Source: Escherichia coli
Lineage (GTDB): Bacteria; Pseudomonadota; Gammaproteobacteria; Enterobacterales; Enterobacteriaceae
Direction: 5' to 3' (one strand)
DNA length: 64,000 nt
Assembly (NCBI RefSeq): GCF_003018235.1
Contig: NZ_CP027437.1
The notes below the pieces were generated by a model. That model ran no database searches, was not told the origin of the DNA, and saw only the letters and a list, made by a program, of their open reading frames with translations. The position numbers were made by a program, and so were the translations under genes. Positions 20,734 through 29,779 of this stretch are shown one piece after another (position 1 is the stretch's first letter; every line of letters starts with the position of its first letter).

Positions 20734-23070
20734 ATGATGGGCGCGGTGTTAATTAACGAAAATGATGAAGTGATGTTTTTCAACCCCGCCGCAGAGAAGC
20801 TCTGGGGGTACAAACGTGAAGAAGTTATTGGCAATAACATTGATATGCTGATTCCGCGGGATTTGCGTCCCGCGCATCCTGAATACATCCGTCACAACCG
20901 TGAAGGCGGTAAAGCGCGCGTCGAGGGGATGAGTCGGGAGCTGCAGCTGGAGAAAAAAGACGGCAGTAAAATCTGGACCCGTTTTGCGCTATCGAAAGTG
21001 AGCGCCGAGGGTAAAATTTATTACCTGGCGCTGGTACGGGATGCCAGCGTAGAAATGGCGCAAAAAGAACAGACCCGACAATTGATTATTGCCGTTGACC
21101 ATCTCGACCGACCGGTGATTGTCCTCGATCCGGAACGCCATATTGTGCAGTGCAATCGCGCATTTACCGAAATGTTTGGTTACTGCATTAGCGAAGCCAG
21201 CGGTATGCAGCCCGATTCACTCCTTAACATTCCAGAATTCCCTGCTGATAACCGCATTCGTTTACAACAGTTGCTATGGAAAACCGCCCGCGATCAGGAC
21301 GAATTTCTGCTGTTGACGCGCACCGGTGAAAAAATCTGGATTAAAGCCTCTATCAGCCCGGTCTATGATGTGCTCGCGCATCTGCAGAACCTGGTAATGA
21401 CTTTCTCGGATATCACCGAAGAACGGCAAATCCGCCAGCTTGAAGGCAATATTCTCGCCGCCATGTGCAGCAGCCCGCCATTTCATGAAATGGGGGAAAT
21501 TATTTGTCGTAACATCGAATCTGTACTCAACGAATCGCATGTTTCGCTGTTCGCGCTGCGCAACGGGATGCCGATACACTGGGCGTCATCTTCGCACGGT
21601 GCAGAAGTTCAAAATGCGCAAAGCTGGTCAGCGACCATTCGTCAGCGTGATGGTGCGCCTGCGGGGATCCTGCAAATTAAAACCTCGTCAGGAGCAGAAA
21701 CCAGCGCCTTTATCGAACGCGTGGCAGATATCAGCCAGCATATGGCCGCGCTGGCGCTGGAACAGGAAAAAAGCCGTCAGCATATTGAACAACTCATCCA
21801 ATTTGATCCGATGACCGGTCTGCCAAATCGCAATAACCTGCACAATTACCTCGATGACCTGGTCGACAAAGCCGTCTCTCCGGTGGTCTATCTCATCGGT
21901 GTTGACCATATTCAGGATGTGATTGATAGCCTTGGCTATGCGTGGGCCGATCAGGCATTGCTGGAAGTAGTCAATCGCTTTCGTGAAAAACTCAAACCGG
22001 ATCAGTATCTCTGTCGTATCGAAGGTACGCAGTTTGTCCTCGTGAGCCTGGAAAACGACGTCAGTAACATAACCCAAATCGCCGATGAGCTACGGAATGT
22101 GGTCAGCAAGCCGATAATGATTGACGATAAACCATTCCCGCTCACCTTGAGCATTGGCATCAGCTACGACGTGGGTAAAAACCGCGATTACCTGCTCTCC
22201 ACTGCTCACAATGCAATGGATTATATTCGCAAGAATGGCGGTAACGGCTGGCAGTTCTTCAGCCCGGCGATGAACGAAATGGTAAAAGAGCGTTTGGTTT
22301 TAGGCGCGGCGCTGAAAGAAGCAATTAGCAATAACCAACTGAAACTGGTTTACCAGCCGCAAATCTTCGCAGAAACGGGTGAACTGTACGGCATCGAAGC
22401 CCTTGCTCGCTGGCACGATCCCCTGCATGGTCATGTGCCCCCTTCACGGTTTATTCCTCTCGCAGAAGAGATCGGTGAAATCGAAAACATTGGGCGCTGG
22501 GTCATCGCGGAAGCTTGTCGTCAGTTAGCAGAATGGCGTAGCCAGAATATTCATATCCCGGCGCTTTCCGTTAACTTGTCGGCGCTGCACTTTCGCAGTA
22601 ATCAACTGCCTAATCAGGTGTCTGATGCAATGCACGCCTGGGGTATTGACGGCCACCAGCTGACGGTGGAAATCACGGAAAGCATGATGATGGAACACGA
22701 TACCGAAATCTTTAAGCGCATTCAGATCCTGCGCGATATGGGCGTGGGTTTATCGGTAGATGATTTTGGCACGGGCTTTTCCGGATTATCCCGCTTAGTC
22801 AGTCTTCCGGTAACGGAAATCAAAATTGACAAAAGTTTTGTCGATCGTTGTCTGACCGAAAAACGCATCCTTGCCTTACTTGAAGCCATTACCAGCATTG
22901 GGCAAAGCCTTAATTTAACCGTCGTGGCGGAAGGCGTCGAAACCAAAGAGCAATTTGAGATGCTACGCAAGATCCACTGTCGCGTTATTCAGGGATATTT
23001 CTTTTCCCGCCCCCTGCCCGCCGAAGAAATTCCAGGCTGGATGAGCAGTGTGTTACCGCTGAAAATCTGA
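20734..23070 (+). CDS. dosP: Heme-regulated c-di-GMP phosphodiesterase DosP (PAS-PAS-GGDEF-EAL); 5' end frameshifted relative to the expected start at 20672
   Basis: EAL motif (YGIEALARWHDP); long ORF begins at ATGATG 20734; a 21-codon ORF with GAGG RBS (20672..20737) ends in TGA overlapping it; adding one T to the T6 run at 20709..20714 would fuse the two. Confidence 0.85.
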   Translation: MMGAVLINENDEVMFFNPAAEKLWGYKREEVIGNNIDMLIPRDLRPAHPEYIRHNREGGKARVEGMSRELQLEKKDGSKIWTRFALSKVSAEGKIYYLALVRDASVEMAQKEQTRQLIIAVDHLDRPVIVLDPERHIVQCNRAFTEMFGYCISEASGMQPDSLLNIPEFPADNRIRLQQLLWKTARDQDEFLLLTRTGEKIWIKASISPVYDVLAHLQNLVMTFSDITEERQIRQLEGNILAAMCSSPPFHEMGEIICRNIESVLNESHVSLFALRNGMPIHWASSSHGAEVQNAQSWSATIRQRDGAPAGILQIKTSSGAETSAFIERVADISQHMAALALEQEKSRQHIEQLIQFDPMTGLPNRNNLHNYLDDLVDKAVSPVVYLIGVDHIQDVIDSLGYAWADQALLEVVNRFREKLKPDQYLCRIEGTQFVLVSLENDVSNITQIADELRNVVSKPIMIDDKPFPLTLSIGISYDVGKNRDYLLSTAHNAMDYIRKNGGNGWQFFSPAMNEMVKERLVLGAALKEAISNNQLKLVYQPQIFAETGELYGIEALARWHDPLHGHVPPSRFIPLAEEIGEIENIGRWVIAEACRQLAEWRSQNIHIPALSVNLSALHFRSNQLPNQVSDAMHAWGIDGHQLTVEITESMMMEHDTEIFKRIQILRDMGVGLSVDDFGTGFSGLSRLVSLPVTEIKIDKSFVDRCLTEKRILALLEAITSIGQSLNLTVVAEGVETKEQFEMLRKIHCRVIQGYFFSRPLPAEEIPGWMSSVLPLKI

Positions 23071-23267
23071 CAAATTCCTCTCGCCCGCACTCGCGGGTTT
23101 TCCTTTAACGTGACACCGTCACTTAAATACTGTGATTTCAGCTACGATTCCGGGAGATTCCTTCTTTAACTTCCCCTCTTGCACCAAAACTGCACTACGC
23201 TGCACGAATGTTGATCAAAAGTTAAAAAATATAACTTTAAGCCAGCATTCTGGCGCTTATCCCGGCA

Positions 23268-23283
23268 TGGCATGAGATCTGCA
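23268..23283 (+). promoter_or_regulatory. Candidate sigma54 promoter for the ddp operon (TGGCAT-N5-CTGCA)
   Basis: -24 GG / -12 GC elements with correct spacing, about 45 nt upstream of the ddpX ATG; nitrogen (NtrC) control of ddp is established knowledge. Confidence 0.5.
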
Positions 23284-23327
23284 TAAGCGGAAAGCGCAGC
23301 AATTTTTGTCTTATACAGGAACCGTTT

Positions 23328-23909
23328 ATGTCGGATACCACCGAACTGGTTGATTTAGCCGTGATCTTCCCTGATCTGGAGATCGAATTGAAATACGCCT
23401 GCGCTGATAACATCACAGGTAAAGCTATTTATCAGCAAGCGCGTTGTCTGTTACACAAGGATGCGATTACTGCGCTGGCGAAAAGTATCAGTATCGCCCA
23501 GCTGTCAGGCTTACAACTGGTGATTTACGATGCGTATCGCCCACAACAAGCACAGGCGATGTTGTGGCAAGCCTGCCCAGACCCGCAATATGTTGTTGAT
23601 GTGGCGGTCGGTTCTAATCACAGCCGTGGCACGGCGATCGACCTGACGCTTCGTGATGAGCACGGGAACATCCTGGATATGGGTGCAGAGTTCGATGAAA
23701 TGCACGAACGTTCCCATGCTTATCACCCTTCCGTCCCGCCCGCCGCTCAGCGCAATCGGCTGTTGCTGAATGCGATTATGACTGGCGGTGGCTTTGTCGG
23801 TATCCCGAGCGAATGGTGGCACTTCGAATTACCCCAGGCAGCGAGTTACCCACTACTCGCTGATCAATTCACCTGTTTTATATCCCCTGGCACACAGCAC
23901 GCCAGTTAA
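23328..23909 (+). CDS. ddpX: D-Ala-D-Ala dipeptidase (VanX homolog)
   Basis: 193-aa ORF with zinc-ligand motif SNHSRGTAIDL. Confidence 0.92.
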   Translation: MSDTTELVDLAVIFPDLEIELKYACADNITGKAIYQQARCLLHKDAITALAKSISIAQLSGLQLVIYDAYRPQQAQAMLWQACPDPQYVVDVAVGSNHSRGTAIDLTLRDEHGNILDMGAEFDEMHERSHAYHPSVPPAAQRNRLLLNAIMTGGGFVGIPSEWWHFELPQAASYPLLADQFTCFISPGTQHAS

Positions 23910-23922
23910 TCAGGAAACTGTC

Positions 23923-25473
23923 ATGAAGAGATCGATATCGTTTCGTCCTACATTGCTCGCGATCGTCCTTGCCACAACAATGCCGGTTGCGCACGCCGCC
24001 GTACCGAAAGATATGTTGGTGATCGGTAAAGCTGCCGACCCACAAACCCTCGACCCGGCGGTAACAATTGATAATAACGACTGGACAGTGACCTACCCGT
24101 CTTATCAGCGACTGGTTCAGTACAAAACGGACGGTGATAAAGGCTCAACCGACGTTGAAGGCGATCTGGCGAGTAGCTGGAAAGCGTCTGACGATCAAAA
24201 AGAGTGGACGTTCACCCTGAAGGACAATGCTAAATTTGCCGATGGCACACCTGTCACTGCCGAAGCAGTAAAACTCTCTTTTGAGCGGTTACTAAAAATC
24301 GGCCAGGGGCCAGCAGAAGCATTTCCCAAAGATTTAAAGATTGATGCTCCCGACGAACATACAGTGAGGTTTACCCTTAGCCAGCCATTCGCACCGTTCC
24401 TCTACACACTGGCGAATGACGGTGCATCCATTATCAATCCGGCGGTCTTAAAGGAGCATGCGGCGGATGATGCCCGTGGTTTCCTCGCGCAAAATACCGC
24501 TGGCTCCGGACCGTTTATGCTGAAAAGCTGGCAAAAAGGTCAGCAATTAGTTCTGGTGCCAAATCCGCATTACCCCGGCAATAAACCGAATTTCAAACGG
24601 GTATCGGTAAAAATTATCGGTGAAAGTGCCTCCCGTCGCCTGCAGCTCTCCCGTGGCGACATTGACATTGCCGATGCGCTGCCGGTGGATCAACTCAACG
24701 CACTGAAGCAGGAAAACAAAGTCAATGTGGCAGAGTATCCGTCACTGCGCGTCACCTATCTGTATCTGAATAACAGCAAAGCGCCACTTAATCAGGCGGA
24801 TTTGCGTCGGGCCATTTCCTGGTCTACCGATTATCAGGGCATGGTTAACGGCATTCTGAGTGGTAACGGAAAACAGATGCGCGGCCCGATTCCGGAAGGC
24901 ATGTGGGGATACGATGCGACGGCAATGCAATACAACCATGACGAAACGAAAGCCAAAGCCGAATGGGATAAAGTGACGAGCAAACCCACCAGCGTGACGT
25001 TTCTCTATTCTGATAATGATCCGAACTGGGAGCCTATTGCTCTGGCGACACAATCCAGTCTCAACAAGCTGGGCATCAATGTGAAGCTGGAAAAGCTGGC
25101 GAACGCCACCATGCGCGACAGAGTGGGTAAAGGTGATTACGACATCGCGATTGGCAACTGGAGTCCGGATTTTGCCGACCCGTATATGTTTATGAATTAC
25201 TGGTTTGAGTCCGACAAAAAAGGTCTGCCGGGTAACCGCTCGTTCTATGAAAACAGTGAGGTCGATAAGTTACTGCGCAATGCGCTAGCGACCACCGACC
25301 AGACGCAGCGTACCCGGGACTACCAGCAGGCACAGAAAATCGTCATTGATGACGCTGCTTATGTGTACCTGTTCCAGAAAAACTACCAACTGGCGATGAA
25401 CAAAGAGGTGAAAGGCTTTGTGTTCAATCCCATGCTGGAACAGGTCTTCAATATCAATACCATGAGTAAATAA
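23923..25473 (+). CDS. ddpA: Periplasmic D-Ala-D-Ala dipeptide-binding protein
   Basis: Start at ATG 23923 (MKRSISFRPTLLAIVLA..., signal peptide) within ORF 23788..25473; solute-binding family 5. Confidence 0.9.
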   Translation: MKRSISFRPTLLAIVLATTMPVAHAAVPKDMLVIGKAADPQTLDPAVTIDNNDWTVTYPSYQRLVQYKTDGDKGSTDVEGDLASSWKASDDQKEWTFTLKDNAKFADGTPVTAEAVKLSFERLLKIGQGPAEAFPKDLKIDAPDEHTVRFTLSQPFAPFLYTLANDGASIINPAVLKEHAADDARGFLAQNTAGSGPFMLKSWQKGQQLVLVPNPHYPGNKPNFKRVSVKIIGESASRRLQLSRGDIDIADALPVDQLNALKQENKVNVAEYPSLRVTYLYLNNSKAPLNQADLRRAISWSTDYQGMVNGILSGNGKQMRGPIPEGMWGYDATAMQYNHDETKAKAEWDKVTSKPTSVTFLYSDNDPNWEPIALATQSSLNKLGINVKLEKLANATMRDRVGKGDYDIAIGNWSPDFADPYMFMNYWFESDKKGLPGNRSFYENSEVDKLLRNALATTDQTQRTRDYQQAQKIVIDDAAYVYLFQKNYQLAMNKEVKGFVFNPMLEQVFNINTMSK

Positions 25474-25474
25474 C

Positions 25475-26497
25475 GTGACCTTCTGGAGTATTTTACGCCA
25501 ACGCTGCTGGGGGCTGGTGCTCGTGGTGGCGGGCGTCTGTGTGATTACGTTTATTATCTCGCACCTGATCCCCGGCGATCCGGCGCGGTTACTGGCGGGT
25601 GACCGCGCCAGCGATGCTATCGTGGATAATATTCGCCAGCAACTGGGACTGGACCAGCCACTGTATGTACAGTTTTACCGCTACGTCAGCGACCTGTTTC
25701 AGGGTGACCTGGGAACATCCATTCGTACCGGGCGTCCGGTGCTGGAAGAGTTGCGCATATTTTTCCCGGCGACGCTGGAACTGGCTTTTTGTGCCCTGCT
25801 GCTGGCACTCCTGATTGGCATCCCGCTGGGCATACTCTCTGCAGTCTGGCGAAATCGCTGGCTGGATCATCTGGTGCGAATAATGGCCATTACCGGAATC
25901 TCCACACCTGCGTTCTGGCTTGGGCTGGGCGTCATTGTGCTGTTTTATGGTCATCTGCAAATTCTTCCCGGCGGCGGAAGGCTTGATGACTGGCTGGATC
26001 CACCAACGCACGTTACCGGCTTTTATCTGCTCGATGCGCTGCTTGAAGGCAACGGTGAAGTCTTCTTCAATGCGCTGCAACATCTCATCTTACCGGCATT
26101 AACGCTGGCGTTCGTTCACCTGGGAATTGTCGCTCGCCAGATCCGCTCAGCTATGCTGGAACAATTGAGTGAAGATTACATTCGTACCGCCCGGGCCAGC
26201 GGCTTGCCCGGCTGGTATATCGTTTTATGTTATGCGCTACCCAATGCGTTGATCCCATCGATTACCGTATTGGGTCTGGCGCTGGGCGATTTGTTGTATG
26301 GCGCAGTGCTCACCGAAACCGTTTTTGCCTGGCCCGGAATGGGTGCATGGGTAGTAACATCAATACAGGCGCTCGACTTCCCGGCAGTGATGGGCTTTGC
26401 CGTCGTGGTTTCGTTTGCTTATGTGCTGGTGAACCTGGTGGTGGATTTGCTCTATTTGTGGATTGATCCGCGTATCGGACGTGGAGGTGGTGAATGA
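25475..26497 (+). CDS. ddpB: Dipeptide ABC transporter permease
   Basis: 340-aa membrane protein, GTG start 1 nt after the ddpA stop. Confidence 0.9.
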   Translation: MTFWSILRQRCWGLVLVVAGVCVITFIISHLIPGDPARLLAGDRASDAIVDNIRQQLGLDQPLYVQFYRYVSDLFQGDLGTSIRTGRPVLEELRIFFPATLELAFCALLLALLIGIPLGILSAVWRNRWLDHLVRIMAITGISTPAFWLGLGVIVLFYGHLQILPGGGRLDDWLDPPTHVTGFYLLDALLEGNGEVFFNALQHLILPALTLAFVHLGIVARQIRSAMLEQLSEDYIRTARASGLPGWYIVLCYALPNALIPSITVLGLALGDLLYGAVLTETVFAWPGMGAWVVTSIQALDFPAVMGFAVVVSFAYVLVNLVVDLLYLWIDPRIGRGGGE

Positions 26498-27390
26498 TGC
26501 TAAGCGAGGAAACGTCAGCCGTGCGCCCACCAAAACAAACGCGATTTAACGGTGCAAAACTGGTATGGATGCTGAAAGGCAGCCCGCTTACCGTGACCGG
26601 CGCAGTCATCATTGTATTAATGCTACTGATGATGATTTTTTCACCGTGGCTGGCGACGCATGATCCCAACGCCATTGATTTAACCGCCCGCCTTTTGCCG
26701 CCTTCTGCGGCGCACTGGTTTGGCACCGATGAAGTGGGACGCGATCTGTTTAGCCGCGTACTGGTCGGCAGTCAGCAATCAATTCTCGCCGGATTAGTGG
26801 TGGTCGCCATTGCAGGTATGATGGGGTCGCTACTCGGGTGTCTATCCGGTGTGCTTGGCGGACGTGCAGACGCGATTATCATGCGCATCATGGACATTAT
26901 GCTGTCGATTCCTTCGCTGGTGCTGACAATGGCACTGGCAGCCGCTCTCGGGCCGAGTTTGTTTAACGCCATGCTGGCGATTGCTATTGTGCGAATTCCC
27001 TTTTATGTGCGCTTGGCGCGGGGGCAAACATTAGTTGTTCGCCAGTATACCTATGTTCAGGCGGCGAAAACCTTTGGTGCGTCGCGTTGGCATCTGATCA
27101 ACTGGCATATTTTACGTAACTCCCTGCCGCCGCTGATTGTGCAGGCATCGCTGGATATCGGTAGCGCGATTTTAATGGCCGCCACGTTGGGATTTATTGG
27201 CCTGGGTGCTCAACAACCGAGTGCTGAATGGGGGGCGATGGTGGCGAATGGTCGCAACTATGTACTCGATCAGTGGTGGTATTGCGCATTTCCGGGGGCA
27301 GCGATTTTGCTTACCGCCGTCGGGTTCAATCTCTTTGGTGATGGTATTCGCGATCTGCTTGACCCGAAAGCAGGAGGAAAGCAGTCATGA
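26494..27390 (+). CDS. ddpC: Dipeptide ABC transporter permease
   Basis: 298-aa membrane protein; ATGA overlap with ddpB. Confidence 0.9.
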   Translation: MMLSEETSAVRPPKQTRFNGAKLVWMLKGSPLTVTGAVIIVLMLLMMIFSPWLATHDPNAIDLTARLLPPSAAHWFGTDEVGRDLFSRVLVGSQQSILAGLVVVAIAGMMGSLLGCLSGVLGGRADAIIMRIMDIMLSIPSLVLTMALAAALGPSLFNAMLAIAIVRIPFYVRLARGQTLVVRQYTYVQAAKTFGASRWHLINWHILRNSLPPLIVQASLDIGSAILMAATLGFIGLGAQQPSAEWGAMVANGRNYVLDQWWYCAFPGAAILLTAVGFNLFGDGIRDLLDPKAGGKQS

Positions 27391-28373
27391 CCCAACCCGT
27401 TCTGGACATTCAACAGCTGTATTTGAGTTTCCCCGGTTTTAACGGCGACGTTCACGCGCTCAACAATGTGTCATTGAAAATCAACCGCGGTGAAATTGTC
27501 GGTCTGGTGGGAGAATCCGGCTCGGGTAAATCAGTCACTGCAATGTTGATTATGCGTCTGTTACCGACGGGCAGTTATTGCGTACATCGGGGACATATTT
27601 CACTGCTGGGAGAAGATGCTCTTAACGCTCGGGAAAAGCAGCTTCGTCAGTGGCGCGGCGCACGAGTGGCGATGATCTTTCAGGAACCGATGACCGCCCT
27701 TAATCCGACACGTCGAATAGGTCTTCAGATGATGGACGTGATCCGCCATCATCAACCAAAAAGTCGTCGGGAAGCCAGAGCTAAAGCGATTGCCCTGCTG
27801 GAAGAGATGCAAATCCCGGATGCCGTGGAAGTTATGTCGCGCTATCCGTTTGAGCTTTCAGGTGGTATGCGACAGCGGGTAATGATTGCGCTGGCATTCT
27901 CCTGCGAGCCGCAATTGATTATTGCCGACGAACCGACTACGGCGCTGGACGTCACGGTACAGTTGCAGGTACTGCGTCTGCTTAAACATAAAGCCCGCGC
28001 CAGTGGAACTGCGGTACTGTTCATCAGCCATGATATGGCCGTGGTGTCGCAACTGTGCGATAGCGTTTACGTGATGTATGCCGGAAGCGTGATTGAGAGC
28101 GGCGTGACGGCAGACGTTATCCATCATCCCCGGCATCCGTATACCATTGGTTTGCTGCAATGCGCACCGGAACATGGAATACCGCGCCAGCCATTACCCG
28201 CTATTCCGGGGACGGTACCAAACCTCACCCATTTGCCTGACGGCTGCGCTTTTCGCGATCGTTGCTATGCGGCAGGTGCACAGTGTGAAAACGTCCCGGC
28301 GCTAACAGCGTATGGTGACAACAACCACCGCTGCGCCTGTTGGTATCCTCAGCAGGAGGTCATTAGTGTCTGA
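27387..28373 (+). CDS. ddpD: Dipeptide ABC transporter ATP-binding protein
   Basis: Walker A GESGSGKS; 4-nt overlap with ddpC. Confidence 0.9.
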   Translation: MTQPVLDIQQLYLSFPGFNGDVHALNNVSLKINRGEIVGLVGESGSGKSVTAMLIMRLLPTGSYCVHRGHISLLGEDALNAREKQLRQWRGARVAMIFQEPMTALNPTRRIGLQMMDVIRHHQPKSRREARAKAIALLEEMQIPDAVEVMSRYPFELSGGMRQRVMIALAFSCEPQLIIADEPTTALDVTVQLQVLRLLKHKARASGTAVLFISHDMAVVSQLCDSVYVMYAGSVIESGVTADVIHHPRHPYTIGLLQCAPEHGIPRQPLPAIPGTVPNLTHLPDGCAFRDRCYAAGAQCENVPALTAYGDNNHRCACWYPQQEVISV

Positions 28374-29292
28374 CACGTTATTAACGTTACGCGACGTCCA
28401 TATCAATTTCCCGGCCCGAAAAAACTGGCTTGGTAAAACTACGGAACATGTTCATGCCATCAATGGTATTGATTTACAGATCCGTCGTAGTGAAACCTTA
28501 GGGATCGTCGGTGAGTCAGGCTGCGGCAAAAGCACCCTCGCACAGCTTTTAATGGGTATGCTGCAACCGAGCCACGGGCAGTACATCCGTTCAAGATCAC
28601 AACGCATTATGCAGATGGTGTTTCAGGACCCGCTCTCTTCGCTCAATCCGCGCTTACCGGTGTGGCGCATCATCACAGAACCGCTCTGGATAGCTAAGCG
28701 TAGTAGTGAACAACAGCGGCGAGCGTTGGCAGAGGAGCTGGCTGTGCAGGTGGGTATTCGTCCGGAGTATCTCGATCGCTTGCCTCATGCGTTCTCAGGC
28801 GGGCAGCGGCAACGTATCGCCATTGCCAGAGCACTCTCTTCGCAGCCTGACGTGATTGTGCTTGATGAACCAACCTCGGCGCTGGATATCTCCGTGCAGG
28901 CGCAGATCCTCAATTTACTGGTAACGCTACAGGAAAATCGCGGGCTGACTTATGTGCTGATTTCACACAATGTCTCGGTGATACGTCATATGAGCGATCG
29001 GGTGGCGGTGATGTATCTCGGACAGATTGTGGAACTAGGAGACGCGCAACAGGTGCTGACAGCTCCGGCACATCCATACACCCGATTATTGCTGGATTCC
29101 CTCCCCGCCATTGATAAACCGCTGGAGGAAGAATGGGCATTACGTAAAACGGATCTACCAGGAAACCGCACGTTGCCACAAGGCTGTTTTTTCCGCGAAC
29201 GCTGCCCTCTGGCAACCCACGGATGTGAAGTCCGGCAATCATTAACAATAAGGGAGGACGGACGTGAGATCCGGTGCTGGCGGGCGCTGTAG
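28366..29292 (+). CDS. ddpF: Dipeptide ABC transporter ATP-binding protein
   Basis: GTG start at 28366 overlapping the ddpD stop (ORF track extends upstream to 28312); Walker A GESGCGKST. Confidence 0.88.
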   Translation: MSDTLLTLRDVHINFPARKNWLGKTTEHVHAINGIDLQIRRSETLGIVGESGCGKSTLAQLLMGMLQPSHGQYIRSRSQRIMQMVFQDPLSSLNPRLPVWRIITEPLWIAKRSSEQQRRALAEELAVQVGIRPEYLDRLPHAFSGGQRQRIAIARALSSQPDVIVLDEPTSALDISVQAQILNLLVTLQENRGLTYVLISHNVSVIRHMSDRVAVMYLGQIVELGDAQQVLTAPAHPYTRLLLDSLPAIDKPLEEEWALRKTDLPGNRTLPQGCFFRERCPLATHGCEVRQSLTIREDGREIRCWRAL

Positions 29293-29347: not shown

Positions 29348-29779
29348 TTACGATTTCAACTGGTAATCAAGCGTAATTTCAGCTTTCAGTACCTGAGAAA
29401 CCGGGCATCCTGCTTTTGCTTTCTGGATAATGCCGTCAAAAGTAGAGGCATCAATACCCGGCACCGCAACTTCGCTCTTCAGTGCGATTTTAGTAATCGC
29501 AAAACCTGCATCCACTTTATCCAGCGACACATCGGCGGTGGTATCAATCGATGTTGGCGTGAATCCCGCTTCCCCCAGCATTAATGAAAGCGCCATTGAG
29601 AAACATGCGGCATGCGCTGCGCCAATCAGTTCTTCAGGGTTGGTTCCTTTTTCGCCTTCAAAACGCGTGTTAAATCCATACGGCTGTTGGTTCAGCACGC
29701 CGCTCTCGGTGGATACAGTTCCCTTCCCGCGTTTGATATCGCCTTCCCAGTGTGCCTGACCTTTCTTATGGATTGTCAT
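29348..29779 (-). CDS. osmC: Osmotically inducible peroxiredoxin OsmC
   Basis: 143-aa ORF recognised as OsmC; conserved Cys (AHAACFSMAL). Confidence 0.93.
   Translation of the reverse strand: MTIHKKGQAHWEGDIKRGKGTVSTESGVLNQQPYGFNTRFEGEKGTNPEELIGAAHAACFSMALSLMLGEAGFTPTSIDTTADVSLDKVDAGFAITKIALKSEVAVPGIDASTFDGIIQKAKAGCPVSQVLKAEITLDYQLKS

Follow-up and report, generated by a model that had tools for sequence, protein, structure and literature searches.

The dosP-ddpXABCDF-osmC locus of Escherichia coli raises the question of which promoter drives the ddp operon and by which activator it is controlled. We addressed this question in a stretch of 64,000 nucleotides from a non-K-12 E. coli strain (the window; all positions are counted from its first letter), in which ddpX is preceded by a 257-nt spacer that separates it from dosP. 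A first-pass annotation of this DNA, made from the letters alone, had noticed the motif TGGCAT-N5-CTGCA at 23268-23283, assigned it to the -24/-12 type, and proposed that a sigma-54 promoter places the operon under nitrogen-limitation control.

Organization of the ddp locus

The identity of the locus was established with an 801-nt query across the region, which found matches in 5395 of the 5426 complete E. coli genomes, the matched features being annotated as dosP and ddpX. Published work uses the name ddpXABCDF for the operon (PMC8743547, PMC4066584), in which the transporter genes are co-transcribed with ddpX. In the window, ddpA to ddpF span positions 23923..29292 on the plus strand, and the next ORF (29348-29779) lies on the opposite strand. 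The intrinsic-terminator-like hairpin that follows dosP would insulate ddpX from dosCP read-through. The features of the region are compiled in Table 1.

Table 1. Coordinates of the features of the dosP-ddpX spacer and the ddp operon in the window. Negative numbers are relative to the predicted transcription start.
Feature	Position	Strand	Basis or remark
Terminator-like hairpin GCCCGCactcGCGGGT with T-rich tail	23083..23108 (hairpin 23083-23098)	+	Just 3' of the dosP stop codon (23068-23070)
Conserved upstream block TTGCACCAAAACTGCACTACGCTGCACGAATGTTGATCAAAAGTTAAA, candidate NtrC enhancer	23179..23226	+	-115 to -68
Palindrome GCCAGcattCTGGC, perfect 5-bp arms	23241..23254	.	-53 to -40; in the spacer; Escherichia-specific
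Sigma-54 (RpoN) promoter ddpXp, ATGGCATGAGATCTGCA	23267..23283	+	Pattern, matrix, ChIP-seq identity, conservation
Predicted transcription start	23294	+	19 nt downstream of the motif centre (Bonocora convention, 34 nt to ddpX)
Predicted 34-nt 5' leader	23294..23327	+	Shine-Dalgarno AGGA at 23317-23320
ddpX, encoding the 193-aa D-Ala-D-Ala dipeptidase; first operon gene	23328..23909	+	ORF list, genome matches
ddpA, ABC transporter gene	23923-25473	+	ORF list, K-12 annotation
ddpB, ABC transporter gene	25475-26497	+	ORF list, K-12 annotation
ddpC, ABC transporter gene	26494-27390	+	ORF list, K-12 annotation
ddpD, ABC transporter gene	27387-28373	+	ORF list, K-12 annotation
ddpF, ABC transporter gene	ORF 28312-29292, exact start uncertain	+	ORF list, K-12 annotation

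A sigma-54 promoter motif upstream of ddpX

The plus strand reads TGGCATGAGATCTGCA at 23268-23283, that is, TGGCAT-GAGAT-CTGCA, and the motif had been read correctly in the first pass. Given the predicted start at 23294, the GG dinucleotide occupies 23269-23270 (-25/-24) and the GC dinucleotide 23281-23282 (-13/-12). Ten bases lie between them (start-to-start offset of 12), in exact agreement with the consensus TGGCAC-N5-TTGCW. GG and GC had been described as 11 nt apart; the pattern stands as it was written, whereas this count is obtained only when it starts at the second G of GG and ends at the G of GC. The two deviations from the consensus, C to T and T to C, are both common among validated sites. 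The motif lies on the plus strand of the dosP-ddpX spacer, oriented toward ddpX, with 44 nt between its 3' end and the ATG codon (23328); its 3' end is 45 positions ahead of the ATG, in agreement with the original estimate of about 45 nt.

To score the motif, a sigma-54 matrix of 17 columns was derived from the 41 other "intergenic sense" ChIP-seq sites of Bonocora et al., with ddpX omitted (leave-one-out). The matrix scan for RpoN promoters, which the first-pass annotation had suggested as a check, returned ddpXp as the top match on either strand of the window with 15.9 bits, a score close to the median of the training sites (16.0 bits, range 9.0-21.5). The degenerate pattern TGGCAY-N5-YTGCW likewise has its sole match in the window, both strands considered, at 23268-23283. 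However, chance would produce this pattern 0.49 times per window, it occurred at least once in 39 of 100 shuffles, and a score of at least 15.9 bits was reached somewhere in 41% of simulated 64-kb sequences; consequently, the motif taken by itself does not reach significance across the window. By simple arithmetic from the simulation, approximately 0.001 matches of 15.9 bits would be expected on the correct strand of the 257-nt intergenic region. The case for ddpXp is carried by position, orientation and conservation, rather than by the motif alone.

The surroundings of the motif were also searched for other elements. An Rfam scan of 22800-23600, with E-values up to 1, gave no match, indicating that no known RNA element is present in the spacer or the leader. 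No mapped transcription start for ddpXp was found in the literature searched. The exact start point used here is a prediction from the motif, and by coordinate arithmetic it corresponds approximately to position 1563110 of K-12 (U00096.3).

Identity with ddpXp of K-12 and published evidence

Positions 23211-23340 of the window are 100% identical to K-12 MG1655, so the data published for K-12 apply directly to the window. Compared with ddpXp of the K-12 ddpXABCDF operon (b1488-b1483), the 17-mer is identical, the flanking sequence shows no difference from 23211 until past the ATG, and the dosP-ddpX-ddpA context is alike. There is no strain difference in the promoter itself. Five substitutions, four of them intergenic, are found further upstream in the aligned stretch, and an A to G change at 23206 falls inside the third TGCAC-containing candidate 17-mer described below.

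The 17-mer of ddpXp is letter for letter the sigma-54 ChIP-seq site OS16 of Bonocora et al. 2015 (PMC4591121), which is recorded with a fold-above-threshold of 10, ddpX as its gene and a predicted start 34 nt away from it. The status of the ddpX promoter in EcoCyc was "predicted" in 2015 (PMC4591121), and the promoter is included in the RegulonDB sigma-54 set. Brown et al. 2014 (PMC4066584) listed ddpXABCDF among the NtrC ChIP-seq peaks of nitrogen-starved cells, with 24-fold enrichment. Shimada et al. 2021 (PMC8743547) reported an RpoN-holoenzyme gSELEX peak at ddpX, gel shifts of a ddpX probe with NtrC, with RpoN holoenzyme and as ternary complexes, and a 104.5-fold increase of ddpX mRNA on nitrogen depletion (RT-qPCR), and concluded that activation of ddpX requires both RpoN and NtrC. 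Sigma-54 occupancy, NtrC association and a nitrogen-depletion response that depends on rpoN and ntrC have accordingly been demonstrated by others.

The proposal of a sigma-54 promoter that subjects the ddp operon to nitrogen-limitation control is borne out by the identity with OS16, the NtrC ChIP-seq peak, the gel shifts and the strong induction, and the published result is the opposite of unchanged expression in an rpoN or ntrC mutant (PMC8743547). We are highly confident that the motif is ddpXp, the sigma-54/NtrC promoter of E. coli ddpXABCDF. The element was already known in E. coli and adds nothing new about this species; the case shows that a genuine sigma-54 promoter can be recognized in raw sequence at the first stage of reading.

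A different division of labour could be envisaged, in which sigma-54 binds but a distinct promoter, of the sigma-S or sigma-70 type, accounts for the main expression in stationary phase, the sigma-54 site being secondary. Lessard and Walsh are said to have found in 1999 that ddpX expression is stationary-phase and RpoS-dependent, which we count in favour of this explanation. Furthermore, a strong dependence of ddpXA on RpoS has been published for E. coli O157:H7 EDL933, and sigma-54/NtrC is therefore not the sole input to ddpX. However, a consensus scan revealed no sigma-70-type hexamer pair in 22900-23500, and the published RpoD-holoenzyme gSELEX data list only an internal ddpA/ddpB promoter and none before ddpX. 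Moreover, the approximately 100-fold induction on nitrogen depletion is attributed to RpoN and NtrC (PMC8743547). The RpoS effect could be indirect, and both inputs can coexist. A main promoter of the sigma-S or sigma-70 type appears unlikely, and we retain the reading of ddpXp as the sigma-54/NtrC promoter of the operon.

A candidate NtrC enhancer upstream of ddpXp

No NtrC enhancer site had been recognized by eye in the first-pass annotation, which had missed a conserved block with NtrC-type TGCAC half-sites (Table 1). Within this block, the half-site TGCAC is repeated directly three times, at 23180, 23191 and 23201 (-114, -103 and -93), with spacings of 11 and 10 nt, which is approximately one helical turn; a triple TGCAC array of this kind is expected 0.04 times per window. 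The first half-site opens with TGCACCA, the exact left half-site of NtrC. The candidate 17-mers that start at the three half-sites (23180-23196, 23191-23207 and 23201-23217) carry 4-5 mismatches each to the NtrC consensus for the 17-bp dyad, TGCACCAnnnTGGTGCA, none of them being a good full palindrome, and no 17-mer with fewer than 4 mismatches to this consensus is present in the dosP-ddpX spacer. The assignment of the block as an NtrC site is tentative, and the exact sites within it are inferred from the half-sites. It offers a concrete, testable place for the NtrC enhancer of ddpXp.

Two classical NtrC-dependent sigma-54 promoters of E. coli serve for comparison: glnAp2 has two strong dyad-symmetric NtrC sites, and glnHp2 uses IHF. 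ddpXp shares with them the -24/-12 element, upstream NtrC binding at a distance of about 80-140 bp (here a candidate) and induction by nitrogen limitation. Its two better candidate 17-mers are centred at -106 and -85, 21 bp apart, which places them on the same face of the helix. In contrast to glnAp2 and glnHp2, the candidate sites of ddpXp are half-site-like and come without an IHF consensus: between the upstream block and the promoter there is no match to WATCAANNNNTTR, and the best approximation, GATCAAAAGTTAA, overlaps the block at 23213-23225 and departs from the consensus at 2 positions. DNA looping at ddpXp would presumably be IHF-free. The A-rich stretch GTTAAAAAATATAAC might bend the DNA intrinsically, which is speculation.

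The position of the enhancer could in principle be sought in the coordinates of the NtrC ChIP-seq peaks, an approach that was dropped. The enhancers of glnA are situated about 100-140 bp upstream. The peaks called at glnA and glnK nevertheless sit on the sigma-54 promoters, as a comparison with the sigma-54 sites revealed, and peak coordinates therefore cannot locate an enhancer. The peak published for ddpX in the same study (U00096.2 1561101-1561181, equivalent to 23255-23335 of the window) likewise lies on the promoter and off the proposed block (PMC4066584).

The second-best match of the sigma-54 matrix in the window, CTTGCACCAAAACTGCA at 23178-23194 (12.8 bits), was rejected as a second sigma-54 promoter, as it carries TG in place of the essential GG and coincides with the NtrC-type half-sites. 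Its score is probably due to the resemblance of TGCAC to both promoter elements. Separately, extra RpoN-holoenzyme bands have been seen in the gel shifts on the ddpX probe (PMC8743547), to which this site might relate.

The composition of the upstream block would also suit an enhancer-binding protein other than NtrC as the activator of ddpXp, given that the half-sites form a direct array, a canonical NtrC palindrome is absent, and every 17-mer departs from the consensus at four or five positions. Against such a protein stand the NtrC ChIP-seq (PMC4066584) and the gel shifts with purified NtrC (PMC8743547), both positive for ddpX, as well as the exact NtrC left half-site at the start of the array. 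In addition, NtrC dyads that deviate at 2-3 positions occur in more distant genera of the comparative set described below, about 100-135 nt ahead of the sigma-54 motif. Examples of near-consensus palindromes, located about 100 nt upstream of the motif with 2 mismatches, are TGCACCTTCTTTGTGCA, from Raoultella and relatives, and TGCACCGATTTTGTGCA. Activation by another enhancer-binding protein is very improbable, and NtrC remains our choice as the activator of ddpXp.

Conservation of the promoter across Enterobacterales

A comparative set of 80 loci was assembled through a DdpX protein scan with one genome per species, covering Escherichia, Citrobacter, Enterobacter, Lelliottia, Franconibacter, Mixta, Pantoea, Brenneria, Serratia, Raoultella, Erwinia, Rahnella and others. 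In 63 of the 80 loci, the 150 nt ahead of the first operon gene contained a sigma-54 motif scoring 12 bits or more, compared with 0 of 800 control windows. Of these 63 loci, 52 additionally contained an NtrC-like 17-mer with no more than 4 mismatches between -40 and -170 relative to the motif, whereas chance would give about 0.075 per region. These counts are not independent, since the loci share ancestry, and they overstate the number of independent events. When only the 400 nt directly before ddpX were scanned, the promoter had seemed to be confined to Escherichia. This view was overturned by a scan upstream of the SapR-like gene described below; the 400-nt scan had been misleading because ddpX is the second gene in most genera.

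An alignment of 19 promoter regions (A2) displayed two conserved blocks only, namely TGCACCAAAA-sTGmACTAyGCTGCACAAATGTTGATCA-N3-GTTAA and the TGGCA...TGC element, with an unconserved spacer between them that is about 10 nt shorter in Escherichia. TGGCA and TGC are invariant in this alignment, and the upstream block is near-invariant in Escherichia, Citrobacter, Enterobacter, Lelliottia, Franconibacter, Huaxiibacter and Mixta. Judged from the aligned sequences, we take the conserved blocks, set against the variable spacer, to be a genuine footprint. In Huaxiibacter chinensis (locus L039, ~1455-1495), a 10-nt unit of the upstream block, CTGCACTACG, is doubled, giving four phased TGCAC half-sites instead of three; this duplication is consistent with a helical-repeat building block.

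That the motif is a chance match without promoter function retains a negligible probability: the frequencies in shuffled and simulated sequences would allow it, but the motif is the single top match, intergenic, on the correct strand and immediately ahead of a gene, and the idea is effectively refuted by the sigma-54 occupancy in vivo (PMC4591121) together with the conservation of the motif at the operon start in many genera while the neighbouring spacer bases vary. Enrichment of sigma-54 promoters for D-Ala-D-Ala dipeptidase genes in gamma-proteobacteria had already been noted in a computational survey of 2025. Our comparison shows that the ddpXp promoter is conserved across Enterobacterales, a result of modest value.

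Proposed loss of a SapR-like regulator gene in Escherichia

In 62 of the 80 loci (within L005-L081), an ORF of approximately 288 aa that encodes a SapR-like protein of the RpiR family is located between the promoter and ddpX, on the same strand (for instance, L006 1620-2486 and L018 1634-2488). The encoded proteins have an RpiR-type HTH domain and reach 374-429 bits against the SapR model (NCBIfam NF046014), below its cutoff of 500 bits. No SapR-like ORF is present between dosP and ddpX in the window, and Escherichia is devoid of the gene. In Burkholderia pseudomallei, sapR adjoins a ddpX-like gene and a dipeptide ABC transporter, and deletion of sapR lowers their expression (PMC9884982). This neighbourhood indicates that the linkage between regulator and ddp genes is old, and an RpiR-family gene occupies the same place in most Enterobacterales ddpX loci. 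In contrast, the sigma-54 promoter abuts ddpX directly in Escherichia, including the window, where the regulator gene is missing.

The loci with a SapR-like gene also contain a palindrome, TTGTTA-N6-TAACA, directly after the -12 element and overlapping the start region (L006 1562-1582; A2 columns ~181-197), followed further downstream by a second repeat, TGACAG-N5-TAACAG. The palindrome TTGTTA-N6-TAACA may be the operator of the SapR-like regulator, and it is absent from E. coli.

In a MAFFT alignment, the 3' end of the E. coli leader matched the Citrobacter and Enterobacter sequence at the junction between the SapR-like gene and ddpX; homology is supported only for ~20 nt before the ATG, and the exact endpoints of a deletion are uncertain. 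As its simplest reading, the alignment suggests a deletion of approximately 0.9 kb in the Escherichia lineage, of which the leader (within the compared stretch 23284-23327) would be the junction remnant. With moderate confidence and no more, we propose that Escherichia rewired the operon. In the ancestral arrangement, the sigma-54 promoter would have been followed by the SapR-like gene, ddpX and the transporter genes. The ~0.9-kb deletion would then have removed both the regulator and the palindrome, and fused the promoter with its upstream block to ddpX. Dual control by the SapR-like protein and NtrC would thereby have been reduced to control by NtrC alone, through an unusual enhancer in which three direct half-sites in helical phase take the place of dyads.

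Variation of the locus among E. coli genomes

A 42-nt promoter core was detected in 4274 of the 5426 complete E. coli genomes, at a match of at least 99% in 3881 of them, and was missing in approximately 21% (1152/5426). The genomes without the core appear to be devoid of the whole operon, as in the one example inspected, E. coli AH20K059 (L083), where ddpXABCDF is absent, osmC follows dosP, and only ~78 nt after dosP are kept (23072-23149 in window coordinates). A different arrangement was observed in E. coli strain 3502 (H32, NZ_CM168000.1), in which the match begins at window position 23208 and ddpX is annotated beside dosC, not dosP; this suggests a deletion of dosP together with the left part of the upstream block.

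Proposed mechanism and implications

In the mechanism that we propose for ddpXp, sigma-54 RNA polymerase would bind the -24 GG and -12 GC elements at 23267-23283 and remain there as a closed complex, unable to open alone. Upon nitrogen limitation, phosphorylated NtrC would bind upstream, the likeliest site being the TGCAC-repeat block between -115 and -68, oligomerise, reach the closed complex by DNA looping and open it with ATP. Transcription would then proceed from about 23294 through ddpX and the transporter genes, allowing D-Ala-D-Ala to be imported and split as a nitrogen and carbon source. If the proposed rewiring is true, the loss of the SapR-like regulator may explain why ddp expression in E. 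coli follows only global signals, namely nitrogen limitation and stationary phase.
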